From a virus, in the IMG/VR virus record IMGVR_UViG_3300029571_000009, positions 1 through 64,000 of that record: a DNA stretch of 64,000 nt. One strand, given 5' to 3'. Position 1 is the first letter of the stretch. Each line of letters begins with the position of its first letter. The notes under the pieces were generated by a model. The model was not told the origin of the DNA. It saw only the letters and a list, made by a program, of their open reading frames with translations, and ran no database searches. The translations under genes and the position numbers were made by a program. Shown here piece by piece: positions 8,384-52,911 of the stretch.

Positions 8384-9088
8384 TTAATCTTCTAATTTAT
8401 TACCTTTAGCTTCATTACAAAGCTTACACATTGTTTGATAGTTACTAATATCATCAATACCACCTTTTGAACGTGGTAAAATATGATCTTTTGTCATTAA
8501 AATTTCATCACCATTATCATCAACTGCATACAGATTTAGATGATATGTTTTATCCTGCAAATGTCTTTCTTTTGCAAAATATTTGCCTTCAATTCCACAA
8601 AATACACACTTACAACCTTTTGTGAAAAATGTCTGGTATCTTTGGCTATTACCTTTTATTAAATCTCCATCGAAATCAACCTTTGCATTTCTCTTATCTT
8701 TTTCAAATAAAACATTTTTCACTTTATTTCTAACTTCATCAATAGAATATACTTCCTTGCGAATTAAGTCCTCATGCTTTGATTTTGATTTTTTTAGTTT
8801 TGGTTCACAAAACTGCTTATTCAATAAAGTATTGTAGACATCTTCGATGTTTAAAACATCAATCAAATCTTTTACCGTTCTGATGTTGTTAGGAATATAA
8901 TCAGAAAGTAAATGTCTATTCCAAACAATCTTAAAAATTTCTGTATCCAAATTTGGTGATAATGGATTATTATTCTTGGGAAAACTCGTATTTAACAAAT
9001 CTTCAATAGTTTCATATTTGTCTAATAACTCCTTATCATTAAAACGATAATGAAATTTAAGACCTTTAAAAAATTTCTTTTTGCTCAT
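8384..9088 (-). CDS. HNH endonuclease (free-standing, homing-type)
   Basis: C-terminal HNH motif KDHILPRSKGGIDDISNYQTMCKLCNEAKGNK plus upstream CxxC pair CKCVFCG. Confidence 0.75.
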   Translation of the reverse strand: MSKKKFFKGLKFHYRFNDKELLDKYETIEDLLNTSFPKNNNPLSPNLDTEIFKIVWNRHLLSDYIPNNIRTVKDLIDVLNIEDVYNTLLNKQFCEPKLKKSKSKHEDLIRKEVYSIDEVRNKVKNVLFEKDKRNAKVDFDGDLIKGNSQRYQTFFTKGCKCVFCGIEGKYFAKERHLQDKTYHLNLYAVDDNGDEILMTKDHILPRSKGGIDDISNYQTMCKLCNEAKGNKLED

Positions 9089-9137
9089 AGTGACATCTCC
9101 TTTAAAATTTTATTGTCACTTATATATTCTCTCTTTT

Positions 9138-9153
9138 ATTTGGAAATCGTGAG
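9138..9153 (-). promoter_or_regulatory. copy of conserved intergenic motif (TTTGGAAATCGTGAGC), upstream of the HNH gene
   Basis: motif match in the 9089-9194 intergenic space. Confidence 0.3.
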
Positions 9154-9194
9154 CAGAAATGCTCTAAGATAAAATCATTTGAAATGCTTCTTTC

Positions 9195-9419
9195 TTATTT
9201 CTCATATAAAGCTTTCTGAAATTGTTTTCTAAATTTCTTACAAGCTGATTCATTTTGACTATCTGTTAATACTCCATGTATATAACAATACTGAATTGAA
9301 TATAATAACTTTTGTAATCTCTCAGCGTCTTTACTGAGAGTACACCCTTGTTTATTCACATACTTTTCCAAATTATCAAATAACGGATCAAAATTACTCA
9401 TATCTACAACTTTACCCAT
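9195..9419 (-). CDS. hypothetical protein
   Basis: 74 aa ORF. Confidence 0.4.
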   Translation of the reverse strand: MGKVVDMSNFDPLFDNLEKYVNKQGCTLSKDAERLQKLLYSIQYCYIHGVLTDSQNESACKKFRKQFQKALYEK

Positions 9420-9423
9420 ATTC

Positions 9424-9720
9424 TTATTCCCCCATCTGATCTACAATACTTTGTAACTTGTCAATATACATCTGTGCATATTTTTTATGTGATAACTGTT
9501 TAATATTAGCAGGTACAAAAGCTAACTTTGCTTCACCAAAAACATCATTATTTGAATAAACTTTCATAAACTGGCACATAGTTTCAGCATCAACCCGATC
9601 TAAATCTAGCTGAAAACAAATTACATCGCCCTTCTGTGGATGCAGTTTTCTAACCTTAATAAGTGTCTGTTTAAATAACTTCTTTTTCTGTCTCTTGTTC
9701 AATTTCTCACCTACTTTCAC
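9424..9720 (-). CDS. hypothetical protein
   Basis: 98 aa ORF. Confidence 0.45.
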   Translation of the reverse strand: MKVGEKLNKRQKKKLFKQTLIKVRKLHPQKGDVICFQLDLDRVDAETMCQFMKVYSNNDVFGEAKLAFVPANIKQLSHKKYAQMYIDKLQSIVDQMGE

Positions 9721-9914
9721 AACCGAATGAATCGTGGTTTTCCTACTTTATTCTTGCAGCACAGGGTTTGCATATATATACCTTTATTTTTTAAATCGTG
9801 TTTTAGATATAATATTTTTAATTTTACAGATATTACACTCTACCAAAACACATGATACTCTTTGTTTAAAATTATTTTTATAATATATTTTTCCTAAATC
9901 TTCAATTATATTAA

Positions 9915-10442
9915 TCATTCCATATATAACTCCTCAAATACAATTTGTTTAGGTAATAATTTATAGCACCAATAAGCACTCATAAAAGTGATTTTATTTT
10001 GAATAACACCATTATTTAAAAATTTCATTCTCTTGTTAAAAGATAATATTTGTAATTCTTTATCTTTAAACAAATGATATGGAGCTGCATCATTCCACCA
10101 AGTATTGGGTGCAATAAGCGCAAATGGTTTGCCAAAACTTAATGCTCTTTCAAAGATTTTTCTTTTATTAGTAAATGGTGGATTAGACACAATACAATCC
10201 CAGTTCTCATCAGGTTCATATGTATAGAAGTCTTGTCCATTATCTATATGAGTAGCGATTACTTTGTGACCTGCTTCTCTAATTTGTTTAACAAATTCAC
10301 TATTTTCCATGTCAAATGGACACCAAACCGTTGCTTCTTTTGGTATATATTTTACTATCGGTTTAACACCGTAATTTGGTGTCATACATTCGTCATTGTT
10401 TCCTTTGCTATATAATACTTCTTGACTATTAATCTTTGTCAT
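9915..10442 (-). CDS. small phage-type N6-adenine DNA methyltransferase
   Basis: catalytic motif SNPPF with upstream AdoMet-binding-like region; 175 aa, consistent with small phage Dam-like enzymes. Confidence 0.6.
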   Translation of the reverse strand: MTKINSQEVLYSKGNNDECMTPNYGVKPIVKYIPKEATVWCPFDMENSEFVKQIREAGHKVIATHIDNGQDFYTYEPDENWDCIVSNPPFTNKRKIFERALSFGKPFALIAPNTWWNDAAPYHLFKDKELQILSFNKRMKFLNNGVIQNKITFMSAYWCYKLLPKQIVFEELYME

Positions 10443-10590
10443 TTTTCAAAAAGGTACAACGTTGTTTTATTCTTGCAAGAAACCTATACCTTTCTTAATA
10501 TTTTTTGTAATTACATTTATATATTCTTTTAATTCTTGTTGTCTCCAACCTCTGAAGCCTTGATTTTAGGGAATTTCAGAGATTGAGATT

Positions 10591-11421
10591 TTAATAATTT
10601 GTGATTAATACCTCACAATCGGCACTCTTGTCCTTTTTCTGATAATTGCAGTTGCTATAATCATGCTTTAAATAATGAACTATGTATTTATCTTTCCATT
10701 TATCAAGTAATGGATTGTCATATTTGAGATTATTACTTAATGCAAACTTAACACCTTTATCATTCAACATATCAAGAGTCTCTAGTAATTTATTCTCCAT
10801 TTCTTCTGTCCAGCCACCGTTTTCATTGTATGTAGCAACAGAATTGAAATATGGTGGATCTGCATAAACAAAATCGCCTTCCGTAAAATCGGAAAAATCA
10901 AATCTCTCAAATGGAATATTTAAGAAACTACAGTCTATTTCATTTAGCCGCTTATGAAAATCTATAAATTTTTGTCTAAGAGTGGGATTAAAACTTGACC
11001 TATCTTTACCAAAAGGCATATTGTATTCACCTTTGGAATTGAATCTGATTTGATTATTGAACGCATAACATAAAAGCGTATAGAATTTAATTGGGTCTTT
11101 AATACCTGTGTTATATTCTTCTCTAAACAGTAAATATCCTTCTTTGTTTTCTTTAGTTAATCCATACTTATTAATATATGAATCAATCTTATGTAATACT
11201 TCTTCAATATTTGAACCTTGTAAATATCTTAGAAAACCAACTACCTGTTCACATATATCATTGTAGATAATGTGATCAGCCTTTACATTAATACCAACAT
11301 TAAAACCTCCACCAAATAAATCCACGAAAGTATTTATCTTATCTGGAAACATCGGTATAATGATTGGTAGTAACTTATACTTGCCACCTACATAATTAAG
11401 TGGACTCTTTATATTACTCAA
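10591..11421 (-). CDS. DNA adenine methyltransferase, D12 (Dam) class
   Basis: NYVGGKYKLL, DLFGGG and DPPY motifs in D12-class order. Confidence 0.8.
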   Translation of the reverse strand: MSNIKSPLNYVGGKYKLLPIIIPMFPDKINTFVDLFGGGFNVGINVKADHIIYNDICEQVVGFLRYLQGSNIEEVLHKIDSYINKYGLTKENKEGYLLFREEYNTGIKDPIKFYTLLCYAFNNQIRFNSKGEYNMPFGKDRSSFNPTLRQKFIDFHKRLNEIDCSFLNIPFERFDFSDFTEGDFVYADPPYFNSVATYNENGGWTEEMENKLLETLDMLNDKGVKFALSNNLKYDNPLLDKWKDKYIVHYLKHDYSNCNYQKKDKSADCEVLITNY

Positions 11422-11594: not shown

Positions 11595-12101
11595 TTAATA
11601 TGGATTGACTTTAATGATTTCTTTTCCAACCTTTTCAGCATACTTAACACAATTTGCAGTACCACCTTTTGTGCCATCCCAAACCGCAATAACTTTATCT
11701 GCCAAATCAACCATATATTCATTTCTTTTCTGCATTAGCCAAGGCTTATATTCTTCATCAGATACCAACTTCACTGTATCTGCTTTTGAAAGAATATCGT
11801 TATATTGGTCAATACTTTCCTTAATCCATTTACAAGAATGATTCTTACGAGGAATTGCACAATGTAATTTAATGTCATAACCTTCGTCTTTGAGTTCTAA
11901 TACTGCCAATGCAAATACTGTATCAACTCCAAGAGCCATTCCTGTAATCGCTTCTGTACAATTATTCTCTTTTAGAATTGATTTAAACTGTTTTTTTAAG
12001 TTCTGCCAACGTAGATCAGATAAGTTGTAACCATATAATTTACTTGGTCTGTGACCTGTTACACATATTTTCATATTTTGTCCTTTCACGGTTGGATTCA
12101 C
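11595..12101 (-). CDS. SLOG-superfamily protein, YpsA/DUF1273-like (predicted nucleotide-binding)
   Basis: N-terminal ICVTGHRP motif and Rossmann-like GxALGVD pattern; sits next to the NAD module. Confidence 0.45.
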   Translation of the reverse strand: MNPTVKGQNMKICVTGHRPSKLYGYNLSDLRWQNLKKQFKSILKENNCTEAITGMALGVDTVFALAVLELKDEGYDIKLHCAIPRKNHSCKWIKESIDQYNDILSKADTVKLVSDEEYKPWLMQKRNEYMVDLADKVIAVWDGTKGGTANCVKYAEKVGKEIIKVNPY

Positions 12102-12388
12102 TTCTCAACCTCAATACTTTTTAAGCTGCCAAGAATGTTCATTGATTGTAGATACAACTTTTTTGTTACAATTTTAATGGCTTTTTCTAGCACTTCATCG
12201 TATGTTATGTATCTCAAATCAATTTTGGTTCTATCATTATCTCTATATATCTTAGGAAGAAAGTATAGATAAGCATAATCAACACCTACAAGCTGTGTAG
12301 TTAATTGAGCTACCAATTCTTCTCCAATATAGAAATCATATTCACCATATACCCATCTATTTTTTACTCTGTGCTTTCTTACTTCCAT
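12098..12388 (-). CDS. hypothetical protein
   Basis: 96 aa ORF. Confidence 0.4.
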   Translation of the reverse strand: MEVRKHRVKNRWVYGEYDFYIGEELVAQLTTQLVGVDYAYLYFLPKIYRDNDRTKIDLRYITYDEVLEKAIKIVTKKLYLQSMNILGSLKSIEVEK

Positions 12389-12423
12389 AATCCTTCCTTC
12401 CTAATGAAATATCGCATTCATTT

Positions 12424-12756
12424 TTATTTTAGTCTGTTCTTATATCGCTCAATACCATATCTTTCAAGCGAACTACTTGTCATAGTAGCCATTTCCACGT
12501 TTGTATTTAACAGAATTGACAACACAAGTGGAAGCTCATCGATCAGAATATTTTTATCTCTTTTCATTGCATCAATATCAGCAAATTCATATGCAGAATA
12601 AATCTTAACCTCTTTATCAGTAATTCTTTCTGCTAAATCACAAAGATACTGTTTCATACTCTCCGTTCCTACGATAATTGGATATCCCGTCTCTACTGCT
12701 TTCATAATAAGTCTTGTTGATTTACCGTATCCTCTTGGTACATTTAAAATTTCCAT
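12424..12756 (-). CDS. hypothetical small P-loop-like protein
   Basis: Walker-A-like GYGKST near the N-terminus; 110 aa. Confidence 0.35.
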   Translation of the reverse strand: MEILNVPRGYGKSTRLIMKAVETGYPIIVGTESMKQYLCDLAERITDKEVKIYSAYEFADIDAMKRDKNILIDELPLVLSILLNTNVEMATMTSSSLERYGIERYKNRLK

Positions 12757-12777
12757 GTGTATATTCTCCTATCGTTT

Positions 12778-13521
12778 TTAGAAATTTGGATAGAATGAAG
12801 GCATAAGCTGAAGCTTGAATAAATTCTTCTCATGCATTGAATCAATCTTCGCTTTTACATCCTCATCATTAATCTCTCCTGTTCTGATATACCTATCAAG
12901 AGTGTCATAAGTGAATCCAAGGTTGTCCTCGTCAGTCTTTCCACAAAGACCGTCAGTAGGTGTCTTATCTACTAACTCAGATGGAAGTCCTAATTCACGA
13001 CCAATCGCCTTAACTTCCGAAACTGTGAGCTGCGATAGTGGACTGAAATCACCTGCTGCGTCTCCATATCTGGTAGCATATCCTACCCAATCCTCTGAAA
13101 GATTACATGTATTTGCAACACGACCATTGATTGTCTGAGATACTGCATAAAGTGTAGCCATTCTGATACGAGCAGGAAGGTTTGTTGTTGTTTGTATAGA
13201 TAAATTTTCGTCTAATGATGTTTTAATTTCATATTCAGCAACATTAACAATTGTTCCAATTGGAATGATCGTTCGAGGAATATCTAAAAAGTTGCATAGC
13301 ATATGACTATATTCGATATCAGATTGTCTTCCCTGCGGCATAAGTACACCAAACACTCTATCTTTCCCAAGAGCTTCTACACACAGAGCAGCTACAACGC
13401 TTGAGTCCTTACCTCCTGAAATTCCAACTACTGCATTACAATCCTTACCATTCTTATCAAACCAATCTCTGATCCACTGTACTACTTCGTTCTTTACTGT
13501 CTTTACATCAAAATTACTCAT
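12778..13521 (-). CDS. nadE: NH3-dependent NAD+ synthetase
   Basis: PP-loop signature GISGGKDSS; 247 aa, typical NadE size and layout. Confidence 0.8.
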   Translation of the reverse strand: MSNFDVKTVKNEVVQWIRDWFDKNGKDCNAVVGISGGKDSSVVAALCVEALGKDRVFGVLMPQGRQSDIEYSHMLCNFLDIPRTIIPIGTIVNVAEYEIKTSLDENLSIQTTTNLPARIRMATLYAVSQTINGRVANTCNLSEDWVGYATRYGDAAGDFSPLSQLTVSEVKAIGRELGLPSELVDKTPTDGLCGKTDEDNLGFTYDTLDRYIRTGEINDEDVKAKIDSMHEKNLFKLQLMPSFYPNF

Positions 13522-13960
13522 GTTTTATCTCTCCTTTTTCAATCTTCTCAATCAATGTAAGTAATTCATTGTATACCTGAATTAAACCGCCTCTGTCATC
13601 AATATAAACATTTGCATATATTTTTCTACCTGCAAAAGCTACAGATGCGTCACAATTGATACCTCTATACTTGATATTGTTGTCCTTTAGATACTGCTCA
13701 ATCATTCCGTATTTATCTTCACCATTCCCAGTAAAAATAATTATCTCTGAATAATTCTCCCATCTTTGTAAAAGATTAATGACATTCTCATATGTCCTAC
13801 CCTTCTTATGGAAATCATAAATCGTATCATCGAAATCTACACAAAAGATAAGCCTGCCATATTTCTTAAATTCTTCCTCTAATCTATTGTAGGAATTATT
13901 GGCTTGAAGATAAAAATCCATATTACTTTCCTCCATACATTCTGTTCCTAATGTCCTCAA
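13514..13960 (-). CDS. HAD-superfamily phosphatase (possible nucleotidase)
   Basis: HAD motif I CVDFDDTIYD. Confidence 0.5.
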   Translation of the reverse strand: MRTLGTECMEESNMDFYLQANNSYNRLEEEFKKYGRLIFCVDFDDTIYDFHKKGRTYENVINLLQRWENYSEIIIFTGNGEDKYGMIEQYLKDNNIKYRGINCDASVAFAGRKIYANVYIDDRGGLIQVYNELLTLIEKIEKGEIKHE

Positions 13961-15383
13961 ATGTATCCTCTCTTACTAATTCTCCATTCTTGAATACAGT
14001 TGTAAGCAAACTATCTTCATTCATATCGAGTAACTGATCCTGACACTTCAGTTCTCCATCTTCTTCATATACTTTGCAACACCCCTTATGAGATTTCTTT
14101 AAATGGCTTGTATCAGTCTTCGGATCTTTGAAGATCATAAGCCTCTTACCATCAATAACTCCATAAGTAGCCTTCATTGCAATTCCAAAAGTATCTCTTG
14201 TAACAACAATCATCTTTCCATTCTCGACAATAGCTGTAAAACAAAATGCACCTACACCATAAGCAATGTTATTAGCTGCAAATCCACGCCTTTCTAACTC
14301 TCTCCAAATAGTCTCTACATTAGAAAGAGTACATCCGTCACCATAGATAATACCAATATGAGGATCTAACACCTTATAACCCTTACCGTTGATAGAACCA
14401 CCAAAGATATCCCATAATCTTTCTACTGTCTTAACTGAAATCTCTACAATATCACCACTGTCAGGACGAACAAGCAACTTGCCATTGTGATTCATAATCT
14501 CTTCCTTACACTGTGGAAGAATATTGTTTACCATATTCCAATAATCATAGGTATCTGAAACCATACTAAATGAAGTATTTGGATATAATTCTGTAAGTAA
14601 TCTCTTAACGAATGTAATCTCATCACCATCAATTGAGTAATTTGCTCCCATTACGGAATGCTCTGTTGATACTGCACCAATTCCAATACCACTATTCTTA
14701 CAATCAGCATTGTAATATTTATCAATATATGTAATGGCAGGAATAGTTGAAGTCTTATTGAAAGATAATAACCATGAAGCAGAACATCTTGTAGCTTCGT
14801 CCATACAAGACATACCTCTCATACCAAAATCGGCACAAGCCATATTGCCAGGTAAACCGTCTGTTGTTTTGTTATACCAATAATCTGCAATCTCACGATA
14901 CATATGACCAATAGTTGCGTGACAGCAAGGCTTCCATAATTCAACCTGAAGGATACACTCAATCCACTGAACAAGCCATGCAAATTTGTCATCTGTATTG
15001 GTAATTTCAATACAAGGAACTCCCATTGGTACAAGTGTTCCCTCTGGTAAAGCTCTAATTTTAAGTGGCAGATAACCAAGTCTGTGAAGTTCTACAATCT
15101 TCTCTAAGTCGTAATTATCTCTGCCAATCTGCACATCCATTGAATCTGTATAAAGAGATAACATCTCATTCTCTGATAATTCAAAGAAATTCTTCTGGAA
15201 ATATCCCATTAGATATTCCTTAATAAAAGCCTGTAATCCGAAGAAAACCATATGATTCTGATTTTCCAACATTGATTTACGAGGCACCCAATATGAGACT
15301 AACTTAGTTAATCCCTTTGGGTACATACGATCATGACACTGCTTATAAGTATCACTAAGTAATAAAGCCATTGTGTTATCCAT
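13923..15383 (-). CDS. nicotinamide phosphoribosyltransferase-like enzyme (NadV/NAMPT family; alternatively a Namat-type nicotinamide ADP-ribose transferase)
   Basis: about 486 aa; N-terminus MDNTMALLLSDTYKQCHDRMYP is typical of the NAMPT family; start moved to the internal ATG at 15383, which has a GGAGG RBS and avoids overlapping the upstream gene. Confidence 0.75.
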   Translation of the reverse strand: MDNTMALLLSDTYKQCHDRMYPKGLTKLVSYWVPRKSMLENQNHMVFFGLQAFIKEYLMGYFQKNFFELSENEMLSLYTDSMDVQIGRDNYDLEKIVELHRLGYLPLKIRALPEGTLVPMGVPCIEITNTDDKFAWLVQWIECILQVELWKPCCHATIGHMYREIADYWYNKTTDGLPGNMACADFGMRGMSCMDEATRCSASWLLSFNKTSTIPAITYIDKYYNADCKNSGIGIGAVSTEHSVMGANYSIDGDEITFVKRLLTELYPNTSFSMVSDTYDYWNMVNNILPQCKEEIMNHNGKLLVRPDSGDIVEISVKTVERLWDIFGGSINGKGYKVLDPHIGIIYGDGCTLSNVETIWRELERRGFAANNIAYGVGAFCFTAIVENGKMIVVTRDTFGIAMKATYGVIDGKRLMIFKDPKTDTSHLKKSHKGCCKVYEEDGELKCQDQLLDMNEDSLLTTVFKNGELVREDTFEDIRNRMYGGK

Positions 15384-15387
15384 AATT

Positions 15388-16224
15388 TTAAACCTCCATA
15401 ACTGTAATCTTTTCATGACTACCATTAAACAAACTGTTTGTAGTAAATAATCTGTTCACTGTATTATTCTCCAAAGACTTGATCAACGTTCCTTTTTCTT
15501 TATCAAGAATTGAATTCTCTGTATGTGTTGCATACGCATAAATCTCAGTTACACCATGTTTCTTTAATTCTTCTGCGCTATAATAAAGTGAACCGCCATA
15601 TGCGATAATATCATCAATCATTAACACAGCTTTGTCCTTCAAATCAATACCATTTGTTATAATGTCTAATCCAAGGATTTTGCCAGTCTTCCAATCTCTT
15701 TTCTTTTCACCATAACAATATGGTAACTCAGGGAATAAATCTGAATATCTCTTAGCTGCACCTGCGTCTGGGAAATAAAGTACAAGATTTCTCATGCCAA
15801 TCTTTGAAATAGCTTTATCAACATACTCTTTTGGATTTTCTTTTACACAATTATTGAGTAATGCAGTAGAAACATCGCTATGAGCATCTAAAACATAAAC
15901 TGATGAAAATCCTAACCAATTGATAAAATCGCAAAAATACTTCAATGTGAATACTTCATCATCATTTTTTACTCTATCCATTCGTGCATTAGGAATATAT
16001 GGAAGATATAAATAATAATCCACATTAGTAAAAAATCTTTCAAGATGTTTCCTTACTAACATCAGATAAAACATCTCATCGTTACTCTCATAAATCCATT
16101 CAATCCAAATGCAAGGAGAGCCATCATAAGTGTCTTCCTCAATGTTGTTTGTATCAATATTTACTCTTGGTGTTCCATCTGGGAACTTGTTGATTGCTAC
16201 AATTTCACCATTAATTTTAATCAT
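15388..16224 (-). CDS. ribose-phosphate pyrophosphokinase-like (Prs; alternatively an Adps-type ADP-ribose pyrophosphokinase)
   Basis: FPDGTPRVNI (Prs N-terminal motif) and PRTase-type DDIIAYGGSL; 5 nt upstream of the NAMPT-like gene. Confidence 0.7.
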   Translation of the reverse strand: MIKINGEIVAINKFPDGTPRVNIDTNNIEEDTYDGSPCIWIEWIYESNDEMFYLMLVRKHLERFFTNVDYYLYLPYIPNARMDRVKNDDEVFTLKYFCDFINWLGFSSVYVLDAHSDVSTALLNNCVKENPKEYVDKAISKIGMRNLVLYFPDAGAAKRYSDLFPELPYCYGEKKRDWKTGKILGLDIITNGIDLKDKAVLMIDDIIAYGGSLYYSAEELKKHGVTEIYAYATHTENSILDKEKGTLIKSLENNTVNRLFTTNSLFNGSHEKITVMEV

Positions 16225-16227
16225 ATT

Positions 16228-16740
16228 CTACTCTCCAATCACGTTAATCTGACACATCTTCATTGTCTCTAATGCAGCCTTATGCGTCTCAGGTGTAACA
16301 CCTGCACAGCAACTTGCATCCACTGTAATATCAATATTAGGATAATTTGCTCTAATCATAAGTGCATTTGACACTACACAAATGTCTGTACAAAGACCAC
16401 AAACTTCTACTTCTGTAAAATCAAAATCATCCCAATGTGTCCATCCGAAAGTCGGCTTATCAATAACTACGTCATTCTCAATATCAAAATCTAACTTATC
16501 TGAAATCTGCCATCCGATTGTATTTTTTACACAATGGACAACTGGGAGATGCTTTCCTTCATATGTTTCTAAATAATTATTTGGGTGTGTATCTCTTGTA
16601 AAAATTACACTATCACCATTTTCTCTGTACTCCTTGATTTTCTTTGCCACATTAAGTACAATACTCTGTGCTTCATTTGTGCCAAGTGAGCCATCAATAA
16701 AGTCATTCTGCATATCAATTACAATTAGTGTTTTACTCAT
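16228..16740 (-). CDS. pncA: nicotinamidase / isochorismatase-family hydrolase
   Basis: LIVIDMQNDF motif and catalytic Cys context EVCGLCTDICV. Confidence 0.65.
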   Translation of the reverse strand: MSKTLIVIDMQNDFIDGSLGTNEAQSIVLNVAKKIKEYRENGDSVIFTRDTHPNNYLETYEGKHLPVVHCVKNTIGWQISDKLDFDIENDVVIDKPTFGWTHWDDFDFTEVEVCGLCTDICVVSNALMIRANYPNIDITVDASCCAGVTPETHKAALETMKMCQINVIGE

Positions 16741-16828
16741 AATGTTTTTCCTTTCTATACTATATCTTGTTATTATTATTTTATCTAACCAGTATATGTA
16801 GTGTTAAACTTACCATGAAATGTCGGTT

Positions 16829-18452: not shown

Positions 18453-18743
18453 TTAATTTCCACTCCTCTTCCAAACACCTATATATTCCTGTGACTCCTG
18501 TTTGAATCTTTTTAACATATCAATTAATGCATCTACTTCTGTCAAATCATTAAAAACAATCTCAACTGGATCTTTTTCTTTTAAATCCAATCTTTCTGCG
18601 TAAGGAAATGGTTTGATAAAACATTCAAATTTAATATCTCTGCCCTTATGTCTGAGTGTGATTTCATTAACATTTTCTTTGTCACCAATCTTCAATATTT
18701 TGCCTCCTTGTGAAATGCGAGTTTCATTTGAACTAAATCTCAA
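18453..18743 (-). CDS. hypothetical protein
   Basis: 96 aa ORF. Confidence 0.45.
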   Translation of the reverse strand: MRFSSNETRISQGGKILKIGDKENVNEITLRHKGRDIKFECFIKPFPYAERLDLKEKDPVEIVFNDLTEVDALIDMLKRFKQESQEYIGVWKRSGN

Positions 18744-19479
18744 ACAACTTCTCTACAGCTTTCTCACCTGTAACTCTATCTGACTTCTGTAACACTTTGC
18801 GTTCTTTCTGCCAGATACATTTAAAATCATCAGGCATATTATATTCACTTATCAACACTATATTATTTTCTGAAAGTTTACGAAGAAAATCGTAGAATTC
18901 GCTATAGTCGATTGACTGTTTAGAATACTGTTTTGTATTTTTATAAGGTGGATCGAAGTAAAAGAGGCAGTTCTTATAATCTGCAAAGTCTTTGTAATCA
19001 CAACATCTAAATTCAATATCATTTAAATCAGGAATTTGTGTTCTAAAATTCTTCAGTCTTTCATTATAAATACTTCTACCACCCTTAGAATCTCTGCCAT
19101 ATCCACCATCAAAATATCTGCCACCATAAGATGCACAATATCCAATAAGTGCTATATACTCTTTTGAATACTTATGTGTTCCAAGTTTTCTATCTTCTCT
19201 CACATCGGCATAATGTTCAAATGTACATACATCTGGTGCAATAGATAAATCATTATCAGACTGAGCATATTTCAATAAAGCAATTAGTTCTTCATTAATG
19301 TCAGCCCCTATCTTCTTATCACATTTAATCTTATCAATTAAATTCGCTCCACCAACCATAGGTTCTATGTAAGTTTTAATATTATTGTCATCAATATACT
19401 TCTGAATAATTGGCACTAAAAATTTTGCCAATCTATTTTTACTTCCTTGATATACCATTCCATTACCAGAAAGTGACAT
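18733..19479 (-). CDS. DNA adenine methyltransferase, D12 (Dam) class
   Basis: MVYQGSKNRL, EPMVGGAN and DPPYKNT motifs; close paralog of 25399..26124. Confidence 0.8.
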   Translation of the reverse strand: MSLSGNGMVYQGSKNRLAKFLVPIIQKYIDDNNIKTYIEPMVGGANLIDKIKCDKKIGADINEELIALLKYAQSDNDLSIAPDVCTFEHYADVREDRKLGTHKYSKEYIALIGYCASYGGRYFDGGYGRDSKGGRSIYNERLKNFRTQIPDLNDIEFRCCDYKDFADYKNCLFYFDPPYKNTKQYSKQSIDYSEFYDFLRKLSENNIVLISEYNMPDDFKCIWQKERKVLQKSDRVTGEKAVEKLFEI

Positions 19480-19524
19480 GTCCTTAGTAGCTACCTAACT
19501 TTTTCCTTTCTGTTTTAATATTTT

Positions 19525-20349
19525 CTACTTCACATATAAACTTTCATACACAATACTATCATTTGATTTACCAATAGTACGCTTAAAGCTGCTATTACCA
19601 CTAAGTAAATATTCGTGTCGTGTATATACATCTTCTGGAACATTCCATGTATTGTCTATATCCCCACTCTTACCATCGAATGATAAAGCATACTTGCAAG
19701 GTAAACTCCTCAAATAATTCCAAAACTTCTCATAATCAATTGTTCCATAATACATACCCTTTGTATTGGCATAAGGTGGATCAAGATACAAGAAGTCGTT
19801 ATCTGTTGGGTTAATATCTTCATAAGAACAACTGATAAACTCTACATTATTTTTCTTCAGCATATGACTCCACTCAAAAATAATCTTTTCAAAAGTTTCA
19901 GGAATAATACCATTTCTTGTTACATGAAAAGAATTATTAAATTCACCATCACGATTATATCTTGGCATACCATTAGTAGTAGTTCTCATAATGAACATAA
20001 AATCTAATGGATTATGTTCTTTATTGTATCGTTCTCTTACACTTGCAAAATATTCTTTTTTACGTTGTTTGTCATCATCAACATTTAACTCATTCCAGAG
20101 TTTCTTATAATAAAAATAAACTTCTAATGGATTATTGATAATCTCTTTCCATAAATCAATTAACCCGCTATTCAAATCACTACATACATAATGATTAACT
20201 TTGATGTCGCTATCTAATAATCTCCTTAATACAGACGCTCCACCACAAAACGGTTCATAATATGTATCAATTTCTTTTGGAAAGAATGTCAGTATCTTTT
20301 CTGCCTGACTTCTTTTACTTCCACTCCATTTAATTACTGGTTCGTACAT
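19525..20349 (-). CDS. DNA adenine methyltransferase, D12 (Dam) class
   Basis: IKWSGSKRS, EPFCGGASV and LDPPYAN motifs. Confidence 0.8.
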   Translation of the reverse strand: MYEPVIKWSGSKRSQAEKILTFFPKEIDTYYEPFCGGASVLRRLLDSDIKVNHYVCSDLNSGLIDLWKEIINNPLEVYFYYKKLWNELNVDDDKQRKKEYFASVRERYNKEHNPLDFMFIMRTTTNGMPRYNRDGEFNNSFHVTRNGIIPETFEKIIFEWSHMLKKNNVEFISCSYEDINPTDNDFLYLDPPYANTKGMYYGTIDYEKFWNYLRSLPCKYALSFDGKSGDIDNTWNVPEDVYTRHEYLLSGNSSFKRTIGKSNDSIVYESLYVK

Positions 20350-27993: not shown

Positions 27994-28022
27994 TTTAAAA
28001 TACCTCCTAATATAATAAATAA

Positions 28023-28095
28023 TGTGCCATACGAGGTTTGAACTCGTAACATCTTGATTAAAAGTCAAGTGCTCTACCTATTGAGATAATGGCAC
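28023..28095 (-). tRNA. tRNA-Lys(UUU)
   Basis: hand-folded cloverleaf: acceptor GTGCCAT/ATGGCAC, anticodon stem CTTGA/TCAAG with loop CTTTTAA, T-arm ACGAG-TTCAAAC-CTCGT, D-loop AATAGGTA; U10-C25 mismatch in the D-stem; no encoded CCA. Confidence 0.7.
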
Positions 28096-28099
28096 ACAG

Positions 28100-28171
28100 C
28101 TAGGATGGTGGGATTCGAACCACGAATGTCAGAATCAAAATCTGATGTGTTGACCACTTCACCACATCCCA
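28100..28171 (-). tRNA. tRNA-Gln(UUG), atypical T-arm
   Basis: acceptor TGGGATG/CATCCTA with one G-U pair; anticodon stem TCAGA/TCTGA with loop TTTTGAT; D-loop AGTGGTCAA; T-arm folds only as a 4 bp stem with an 8 nt loop (GTGG-TTCGAATC-CCAC); 4 nt from the tRNA-Lys. Confidence 0.5.
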
Positions 28172-52830: not shown

Positions 52831-52911
52831 ATGTGCTTGTAGGAATCGAACCTACTGATAAGTATAATGTTGTTAGCATTATATTATTCACCACATATAA
52901 GCACAAATAAG
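52831..52911 (-). ncRNA. tRNA-like element (degenerate tRNA or tRNA-derived fragment)
   Basis: perfect T-arm GTAGG-TTCGATT-CCTAC; acceptor TGTGCTT/AAGCACA; candidate anticodon stem TAATG/CATTA with loop CTAACAA (would read AAC); D-arm does not fold canonically. Confidence 0.3.

Follow-up and report, generated by a model that had tools for sequence, protein, structure and literature searches.

NARP1 is a phage pathway made up of two proteins, Adps and Namat, and is known from phages Bas63, SPbetaL1, FADO and ICP1 (Osterman et al., 2024). From ADP-ribose (ADPR), ATP and nicotinamide it makes NAD+ by way of ADPR pyrophosphate (ADPR-PP), and it rescues phage from SIR2, TIR and SEFIR defences. Here we describe a string of eight genes at positions 11595-16740 of a 64,000-nucleotide (64-kb) stretch of viral DNA (positions 1 to 64,000 of IMG/VR record IMGVR_UViG_3300029571_000009; this whole stretch is called the window below), in which genes for an Adps-type kinase and a Namat-family transferase lie between genes for a PncA nicotinamidase and a NadE NAD+ synthetase. 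The family memberships, pocket substitutions, clade structure, linkage, fusions and cassette swap reported here were established by computation. Read from its sequences, the module core is probably a deamidated NARP1: four enzymes that would rebuild NAD+ from ADPR and nicotinamide via nicotinate.

All eight open reading frames (ORFs) of the string described in the original prediction for this DNA are present, on the minus strand, at the coordinates stated there. It had the kinase gene following the transferase gene at a distance of 5 nt; the kinase gene in fact lies upstream, and the gap is 4 nt. From PncA to NadE the genes are, in order of transcription:

16228-16740, minus strand: PncA-type nicotinamidase (PF00857, 101.7 bits); proposed step 1.
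15388-16224, minus strand: Adps-type Prs-like pyrophosphokinase (TIGR01251, 91 bits); proposed step 2.
13923-15383, minus strand: Namat/Nampt-family transferase, designated Namat* and called the variant Namat below (NF006629, 464 bits; PF04095; PF18127); proposed step 3.
13514-13921 (ORF 13514-13960), minus strand: small capless HAD phosphatase (DFDDT; phrog_1238, 79.6 bits).
12778-13521, minus strand: NadE, NH3-dependent NAD+ synthetase (TIGR00552, 187.5 bits; PF02540, 181.5 bits); proposed step 4.

The transferase ORF extends to 15425, with 15383 as the likely start. The HAD gene had been given as the whole ORF 13514-13960, which is present, but a length of 135 aa in its homologues makes 13921 the most likely start. 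Between PncA and NadE the widest gap is 4 nt and the longest overlap 8 nt, and this tight spacing suggests that the genes are co-transcribed.

In the proposed pathway, PncA would first convert nicotinamide released by NAD+-consuming enzymes (NADases) to nicotinate, and the Adps homologue would make ADPR-PP from ADPR and ATP. The variant Namat would then join nicotinate and ADPR-PP directly into nicotinate adenine dinucleotide (NaAD): its pocket, without the amide-binding Asp and with Ser, Ser and Lys gained, would point to nicotinate as the base. NadE would finally amidate NaAD to NAD+. The ribose-phosphate and AMP moieties would thus be supplied by ADPR and not by phosphoribosyl pyrophosphate (PRPP) plus ATP, and accessory proteins (HAD, Macro or NADAR) would probably feed modified ADP-ribose into the pathway. 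Every substrate and product in this scheme is a prediction, as is the anti-defence role.

The classical annotation of such a kinase-transferase pair is Prs and NadV, and the original prediction had preferred Adps and Namat. The identities agree with it: the window kinase shares 37% of its residues with SPbetaL1 Adps, 34% with FADO Adps and 30% with ICP1 Adps, as against 23% with Escherichia coli Prs, and the validated Adps proteins are only ~32% identical among themselves. For the transferase, the best matches in the PDB are SPbetaL1 Namat structures (9w5x/9w5w, 395 bits), as against 193 bits for human NAMPT. The kinase's score against TIGR01251 is under the cutoff of 113 bits. It retains (ICP1 numbering) F18, R87, H121, D161, the catalytic beta-hairpin lysine K185 (K162 in SPbetaL1), D212 and D213; in Adps the Lys is catalytic and F18, R87, H121, D161, D212 and D213 belong to the acceptor site (PMC13586617). 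Compared with E. coli Prs it is shorter at both ends, missing ~17 aa at the N-terminus and alpha11-alpha12 at the C-terminus, and loss of alpha11-alpha12 is a trait of the Adps family according to the 2026 Adps structure paper (PMC13586617). The motifs ARMDR, HSDV..AL.NN and FPDAGA.KRY are common to the window kinase and Adps. Its PP-loop reads I-A-Y-G-G-S; ICP1 has C215-D216-x-A-A-S together with F92, and SPbetaL1 has S-S-F-G-G-T together with Glu at 92, so PP-loop residues and position 92 differ among validated Adps enzymes. SPbetaL1 Adps gave no product in the reported ribose-phosphate-route assay, which supports the view that Adps is not a Prs. Taken by its sequence features, the window kinase classes as Adps-type and not as a bona fide Prs. 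Membership of phrog_619 was dropped as evidence for Adps: the family does not separate Adps from Prs, since E. coli Prs also scores 193 bits against it.

The two outer enzymes have more conventional relatives. The best PDB match of PncA is the Pyrococcus horikoshii pyrazinamidase/nicotinamidase 1ILW (E=7e-16), and in the alignment to 1ILW it retains the catalytic residues Asp, Lys and Cys along with the Zn-binding Asp-His-His (TRDTHP…VHC). The best PDB matches of NadE are all NH3-dependent NAD synthetases.

The transferase keeps the core of the family, namely D13, Y15, F189, R192, H245, R306, D308 and the TRD motif (SPbetaL1 numbering), and it is changed at the pyridine pocket. In SPbetaL1 Namat the nicotinamide pocket is formed by F189, R192, D215, A242, R306, D13' and Y15', and D215 hydrogen-bonds the nicotinamide amide in the crystal structures (PMC12774641). 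D215 and A242 are found in the Namats of all three validated-NARP1 phages SPbetaL1, FADO and ICP1. In the window protein both are Ser (D215 to S212, A242 to S239), and two further pocket positions have changed (G213 to K210, H187 to A184). A HMMER alignment places S212 at D219 of human NAMPT, S239 at A244, K210 at G217 and A184 at H191. Human NAMPT D219 binds the amide; its counterpart in NaPRT, Ser214, is one determinant of nicotinate specificity (PMC4442680). In a review table, D219S is entered as a mutation that switches substrate affinity, and H191R, G217R and A244M as mutations preventing inhibitor binding (PMC4919578).

The reference for the adenine clamp was R40, which lies in the SCL loop, plus a GSX-phi-X-phi-X-phi-TRD motif whose positions 3 and 7 are aromatic. 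In the window protein F392 is kept, R40 has become M38, Y396 is lost and the clamp helix carries a 9-aa insertion (GAFCFTAIVENGKMIVVTRD). The NARP1 architecture that had been proposed for the locus thus holds in that an Adps gene adjoins a gene of the Namat family, but it does not extend to a canonical Namat: D215 and A242 are both Ser, R40 is Met and the helix has its insertion. On its residues we class the protein as a member of the Namat family but not as a canonical Namat.

The substitutions are shared by a whole group of proteins. A search of 1.84 billion cluster representatives was followed by alignment of the best 150, with fragments of less than 430 aa left out and references added, which gave 149 sequences (143 cluster representatives and six reference or window sequences). 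Forty-eight of the 149 make up the class with Ala, Ser or Val at 215 (the A/S class). Positions 215 and 242 are coupled: Asp or Glu at 215 goes with A242 in 98/99 sequences, and Ala, Ser or Val at 215 goes with S242 in 46/48. A column-by-column scan ranked 215, 242, 187, 304, 240, 239 and 213 as the columns that separate the classes most. These changes cluster at the pyridine pocket, with G213 becoming Lys or Asn, and several of the columns map to human H191, G217, D219 and A244, which are sites of specificity and FK866-resistance mutations (PMC4919578). In a neighbour-joining (NJ) tree the A/S class forms a single clade (47/48), with the window protein and those of MT835544 and Phass-1 inside it and those of SPbetaL1, FADO and cr126_1 outside; ICP1, absent from the tree, carries D215/A242. 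Phylogenetic placement, which had been suggested as a check, thus sets the transferase in a clade apart from SPbetaL1, FADO and cr126_1. By sequence similarity, both proteins of the pair go with validated NARP1 enzymes and not with Prs or Nampt. Within the A/S clade R40 is present in 42/48 members, and position 392 is aromatic in all but one. The clamp helix has its canonical length in 11/48, several of them with GSYTYQYVTRD, and carries an insertion of 8-13 aa in the other 37, mostly followed by an aromatic residue before TRD. Judged by these residues, a clamp of the ADPR-PP-preferring kind is largely kept across the clade.

As a separate observation, many large Namat-family representatives of 800-1100 aa (P0123, P0150, P0164 and others) are interrupted by 90-400 aa of extra sequence, probably an intein or homing-endonuclease domain. 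The insertion points are few and fixed: behind window residues ~235 and ~316 and within the clamp helix. P0145 is extended at its N-terminus by an HNH/AP2 segment.

The clade is also marked by its neighbours. The 80 viral contigs closest to the window come from uncultivated gut phages and in many cases measure 150-165 kb; they keep the block PncA, Adps, variant Namat, optional accessory and NadE, at identities down to 52% for PncA, 55% for NadE and 57% for Adps. PncA stands at the head in 142 related loci, including those where its identity has fallen to 52-55%, and NadE is the last module gene in related loci. MT835544 has the four module genes, with a transferase 52% identical to that of the window and a different gene order. 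In Phass-1 (OQ749652), a gut phage that uses genetic code 15, the transferase is 35% identical and the gene order is the same; the four genes also occur in its relatives. The Phass-1 locus (L087, 8480-12918) reads PncA, Adps, variant Namat, HAD and NadE, and lies beside more than 25 tRNA genes, including a suppressor tRNA.

Comparison with loci of the canonical type brings out the association. Of 80 diverse viral loci, 79 carry D215/A242; Adps is present in 77 of these, and neither PncA nor NadE lies within 8 kb in any of the 79. L339, the single locus of the set with A215/S242, holds all four genes. Genome bins of bacteria and archaea, scanned with a search pattern biased towards S242, gave 80 loci of the A/S type, and linkage was counted where at least 5 kb of flank was available on both sides. 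Among the 39 such A/S loci, PncA is found in 37, Adps in 37, NadE in 36, and PncA and/or NadE in all 39; the 55 control loci with D215/A242 (D/A) that pass the same rule have no PncA, no NadE and Adps in every case. The contrast of 39/39 with 0/55 corresponds to p ~1e-27 by Fisher's exact test, a value that carries no correction for phylogeny, the signature having arisen essentially once. Gene fusions are found as well. P0225, an 865-aa cluster representative with S215/S242, joins the variant Namat to an NAD_synthase domain (NadE). In five loci on Ruminococcus contigs from metagenome-assembled genomes (MAGs), namely L399, L404, L406, L409 and L415 (at ~9.4-10.7 kb), a single NADAR-NadE ORF lies directly 3' of the variant Namat; stop-codon recoding or assembly error is possible for these five ORFs. 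NadE is otherwise rare among isolated phages: of 50,697 records 45 contain it, and 2,006 contain a homologue of Namat/Nampt. PncA and NadE are obligate partners of the variant Namat clade. The original prediction had assigned them to a separate, incomplete deamidated route; as obligate partners they would instead form part of one closed four-step pathway.

Two other sets of phage NadE genes were seen. The human faecal phage scaffolds MT836475 (L084) and MT836279 (L086) carry a ~49% identical NadE, with the other module genes absent within several kb. The NadE-like genes of cyanophages and pelagiphages were set aside as irrelevant, as they sit in sugar-modification clusters.

An explanation that stays closer to validated NARP1 would have the transferase use nicotinamide (or both bases) with ADPR-PP to make NAD+, while PncA and NadE act as helpers that boost the host's Preiss-Handler route (PncA, PncB, NadD, NadE) in parallel. 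The catalytic core and the adjacency to Adps do match validated NARP1, human D219S is listed only as a change of substrate affinity, and Clostridia hosts probably have PncB and NadD. Helpers of this kind, however, leave unexplained why PncA and NadE are exclusive to the A/S215-S242 clade (0/55 canonical loci), why at least five pocket residues change jointly and why the variant Namat should be fused to NadE, and PncA would compete with Namat for nicotinamide. We consider this explanation unlikely.

The deamidated pathway draws further support from a swap of cassettes. When the search is made from the NadE side, many phages of the same family prove to have retained PncA, with identities of up to 95%, and NadE, with up to 91%, but neither Adps nor Namat between them. 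The slot holds PncB and NadD instead: in the locus L104, PncB scores 482 bits against NF003704, above the cutoff, and NadD scores 103 bits against TIGR00482, just under the cutoff of 112, with the motifs GSFNPITNAH and SSSLVR present. Counted as distinct modules after removal of identical sequences, the slot between PncA and NadE holds Adps plus the variant Namat in 119 modules and PncB plus NadD in 74, and the two cassettes never occur together. Because the cassettes swap in this slot, the simplest reading is that Adps and the variant Namat do the job of PncB and NadD, from nicotinate to NaAD; as they would replace PncB and NadD, no nicotinamide or nicotinate mononucleotide (NMN/NaMN) adenylyltransferase and no PRPP would be needed. 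The sister module in L104 (6404-10735 of IMGVR_UViG_3300045988_134314) and 73 other distinct modules read PncA, a radical-SAM-like 214-aa protein, DUF5662, PncB, NadD and NadE, that is, the full Preiss-Handler set with two extra genes.

The window itself has PncA and NadE of the Preiss-Handler enzymes and lacks PncB and NadD. A Pfam scan of the remaining 39 ORFs with 125 aa or more, together with tblastn and motif searches, detected no gene for NMNAT, PncB or NUDIX in the 64-kb window, nor does it hold NadM, NadR, NadD or PnuC. The original prediction was thus right that no NMNAT and no PncB are visible and that the set, with its PncA and NadE, fits neither classical route. Neither route looked complete, we suggest, because the four-enzyme set is closed in itself.

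The accessory genes follow the cassettes. Macro (PF01661), NADAR (PF08719) or HAD lies between the variant Namat and NadE in 98/119 modules of the Adps type (Macro in 60/119) and in 0/74 of the PncB-NadD type. As these accessories accompany only the former, that cassette appears to be tied to ADP-ribose chemistry and not to PRPP. Macro is the ADPR-1''-phosphate phosphatase (Adpp) of NARP1-AP, a NARP1 variant. It is absent from the window module, where HAD takes the slot that Macro and/or NADAR occupy in sister loci. The DFDDT motif of the HAD protein conforms to DxDxT. Its AlphaFold2 model has a pLDDT of 80.6, and the PDB fold matches listed for it are almost all capless HAD-superfamily phosphatases, but they are weak and generic, with template modelling (TM) scores of at most 0.49; a sequence search of the PDB gave no match. 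HAD is also found in canonical NARP1 operons, in the crAss-like phage cr126_1 and in 8/79 of the diverse loci, and it occurs together with Macro in 1/298 loci with Adps and Namat. This recurrence in NARP1 operons, almost never with Macro, suggests a role equivalent to that of Macro, dephosphorylating an ADP-ribose derivative. HAD is one of three interchangeable, optional accessories. The window HAD as the Adpp of NARP1-AP was considered and rejected, since the phosphatase there is a Macro domain and not a HAD protein.

The swap and the accessories also bear on a Preiss-Handler route assembled from non-orthologous parts, in which the Prs-like kinase would make PRPP, the transferase would make NaMN, and host NadD and phage NadE would complete the synthesis. 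A nicotinate-type pocket is compatible with PRPP as the second substrate too, validated Namat retains PRPP activity in vitro, the window's adenine clamp is degraded at R40 and Y396, and the classical NadV/Prs annotation fits. Yet the kinase has Adps-specific features and is as close to the validated Adps proteins as those are to each other, SPbetaL1 Adps made no product by the ribose-phosphate route, and most of the A/S clade keeps R40 and the aromatic clamp residues. Macro and NADAR travel with the Adps cassette and never with PncB-NadD, and the swap removes NadD along with PncB, which would leave a PRPP-based route dependent on the host. A route of this composition is distinctly unlikely. 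Also unlikely is a general NAD+-boosting auxiliary metabolic module that has nothing to do with defence, or one whose product is a pyridine dinucleotide other than NAD+: the plain PncB-NadD cassette of sister phages in the same slot does suggest that the common pressure is NAD+ supply, but it is mainly the action of NADases that makes ADPR abundant, both NARP1 and NARP2 have been shown to counter NADase defences, and the Macro accessory matches the logic of NARP1-AP. By analogy with NARP1 and NARP2, the window module may have an anti-defence role.

Returning to the deamidated pathway, there are several points that weigh against it. First, the variant Namat's choice of substrate is predicted from pocket residues, and human NaPRT needs further determinants for strict nicotinate specificity (PMC4442680). 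Second, the subclade of the window protein has the most divergent adenine clamp (R40 Met, Y396 lost, the 9-aa insertion and S391 Ala), so that the use of ADPR-PP is less secure for this enzyme than for the clade. Third, the linkage statistics are phylogenetically non-independent, because the A/S signature arose essentially once, and some full-flank A/S loci are without NadE (L413, L416), without PncA (L359) or without more of the partners (L358, L376). Fourth, the absence of an adenylyltransferase applies to the 64-kb window, and ~90 kb of the phage genome lies outside it. Lastly, the selective advantage of a detour through nicotinate is unexplained, because SIR2/TIR NADases are open to product inhibition that might, in principle, be lifted once nicotinamide is removed. 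One speculation is that host nicotinamidase in gut anaerobes is so fast that nicotinate is the sole base available.

With these points counted, we lean, slightly more cautiously than for the window module itself, towards a general claim: that the variant Namat clade would catalyse an undescribed reaction, nicotinate + ADPR-PP to NaAD + pyrophosphate, and with PncA, Adps and NadE would make up a fourth phage NAD+ route, common in gut Clostridia phages and prophages, in which PncB and NadD are replaced and HAD, Macro and NADAR widen the range of ADP-ribose derivatives recycled. Full-text literature searches, with paywalled papers outside their reach, returned no description linking PncA, NadE or nicotinic acid to NARP1, and no account of the nicotinate detour for rebuilding NAD+ was found in the searchable literature. 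They did retrieve NARP1, NARP1-AP, NARP2 and NARP3 and the structural work on Namat and Adps; the NARP papers checked for these terms are silent on PncA, NadE and nicotinic acid where NARP1 is concerned.

The string continues beyond NadE with three more genes, and a promoter-like site lies upstream of PncA:

12424-12756, minus strand: P-loop-like 110-aa protein (imperfect GYGKST motif; phrog_1828, function unknown).
12098-12388, minus strand: orf96, 96 aa, no match.
11595-12101, minus strand: YpsA/SLOG protein (PF06908, 81 bits).
16778-16807, minus strand: promoter-like site 5' of PncA (TTAACA-18-TAAAAT, 10/12 positions; weak).

The ORF of the predicted P-loop mini-protein is there, but of the motif itself only the imperfect GYGKST. 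The YpsA/SLOG gene, the last of the string, is also weakly DprA-like; SLOG domains are predicted nucleotide binders, and the gene is not conserved with the module. The P-loop-like gene, orf96 and the SLOG gene occur in this position in few of the 80 closest loci and are otherwise absent or located elsewhere. Where HAD, P-loop and SLOG genes had all been counted as part of the module, HAD keeps its place as the slot accessory and the P-loop and SLOG genes do not. The promoter-like site is a candidate only, because the region holds fewer such sites than its shuffles.

The window is AT-rich (~31% GC) and is transcribed almost entirely from the minus strand. Megablast of the module against the INPHARED phages gave no match; the phage is uncultivated. 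Its closest genomic relatives are in MAGs of Lachnospiraceae, Roseburia, Ruminococcus and other Clostridia, and relatives in isolate genomes are Lachnospiraceae bacterium A4 (82% identity), Ruminococcus sp. AM36-2AA (72%) and Thomasclavelia cocleata (66%). Two proteins of the integrase family are encoded in the window, which points to a probably temperate phage; the integrases and accompanying genes, together with relatives that lie inside isolate genomes (L346, L350), suggest a temperate Lachnospiraceae phage.

Other features of the window lie away from the module. The region 33908-60740 contains the two phage-integrase-family ORFs, GmrSD_N, RadC, DUF3825, DUF6551 and a DNA polymerase III beta-like protein, and coding strand and GC skew switch at ~54-56 kb. 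A dense anti-restriction-like cluster at 8384-11421 and 18733-20349 contains three D12/Dam methyltransferases, one methylase each of the N6_N4 and C5 types and Eco57I-like methylase hits, with an HNH endonuclease at 8384-9088. There are three tRNA genes (28022-28171 and 52831-52905): Lys-TTT and Gln-TTG, which are adjacent, and Val-AAC in an ORF-poor stretch.

If the deamidated pathway is correct, it would add a new enzymatic reaction, the formation of NaAD directly from nicotinate and ADPR-PP, and one more pathway by which phages counter immune systems that deplete NAD+. It would account for many phage genes annotated as NadV, Prs, PncA and NadE that resemble two incomplete salvage routes, and it would provide a rule for annotating two kinds of Namat, with Asp as against Ser or Ala at 215 and Ala as against Ser at 242. 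One phage family would then swap a PRPP-based for an ADPR-based cassette between a fixed PncA and NadE, and so offer a natural test of which factor limits the supply of NAD+ in infected cells. The biology would be placed in phages of gut Lachnospiraceae and Ruminococcus, a setting for which the predominance of the deamidated NAD route is already known.

The module can finally be set beside the described systems. NARP2 (Nampt and NMNAT, Vibrio phage KVP40) and NARP3 (PnuC and NadR) resemble it as phage systems that restore NAD+, but the window has no NMNAT, NadR or PnuC, its kinase is Adps-type and its transferase is nearer to Namat than to Nampt in bit score (395 as against 193). NARP3 was rejected as a match, being the unrelated pair PnuC and NadR. 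The Preiss-Handler set PncA-PncB-NadD-NadE, found in Bacillus phage G and in the sister phages, shares with the window its first and last enzymes, the deamidated intermediates and, in the sister phages, the slot; it differs in that the window has Adps and the variant Namat in place of PncB and NadD, and ADPR would replace PRPP and ATP. NARP1-AP (Adps, the Macro protein Adpp and Namat; Vibrio phage Gary) likewise has an extra ADPR-processing gene in its operon, and many sister loci of the window carry Macro PF01661, whereas the window has the small HAD phosphatase, and HAD and Macro are nearly mutually exclusive. NARP1 itself shares with the window the adjacent Adps-type kinase and Namat-family transferase with both catalytic sites kept, the location in a phage and, by prediction, ADPR from NADases as substrate. 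Three differences set the two apart: the window transferase has Ser and not Asp at the amide site, with coupled changes at 242, 213, 187 and 239/240, and belongs to a separate clade; its module is tied to PncA and NadE, which occur in no canonical NARP1 locus examined; and the predicted product of the variant Namat is NaAD, not NAD+.

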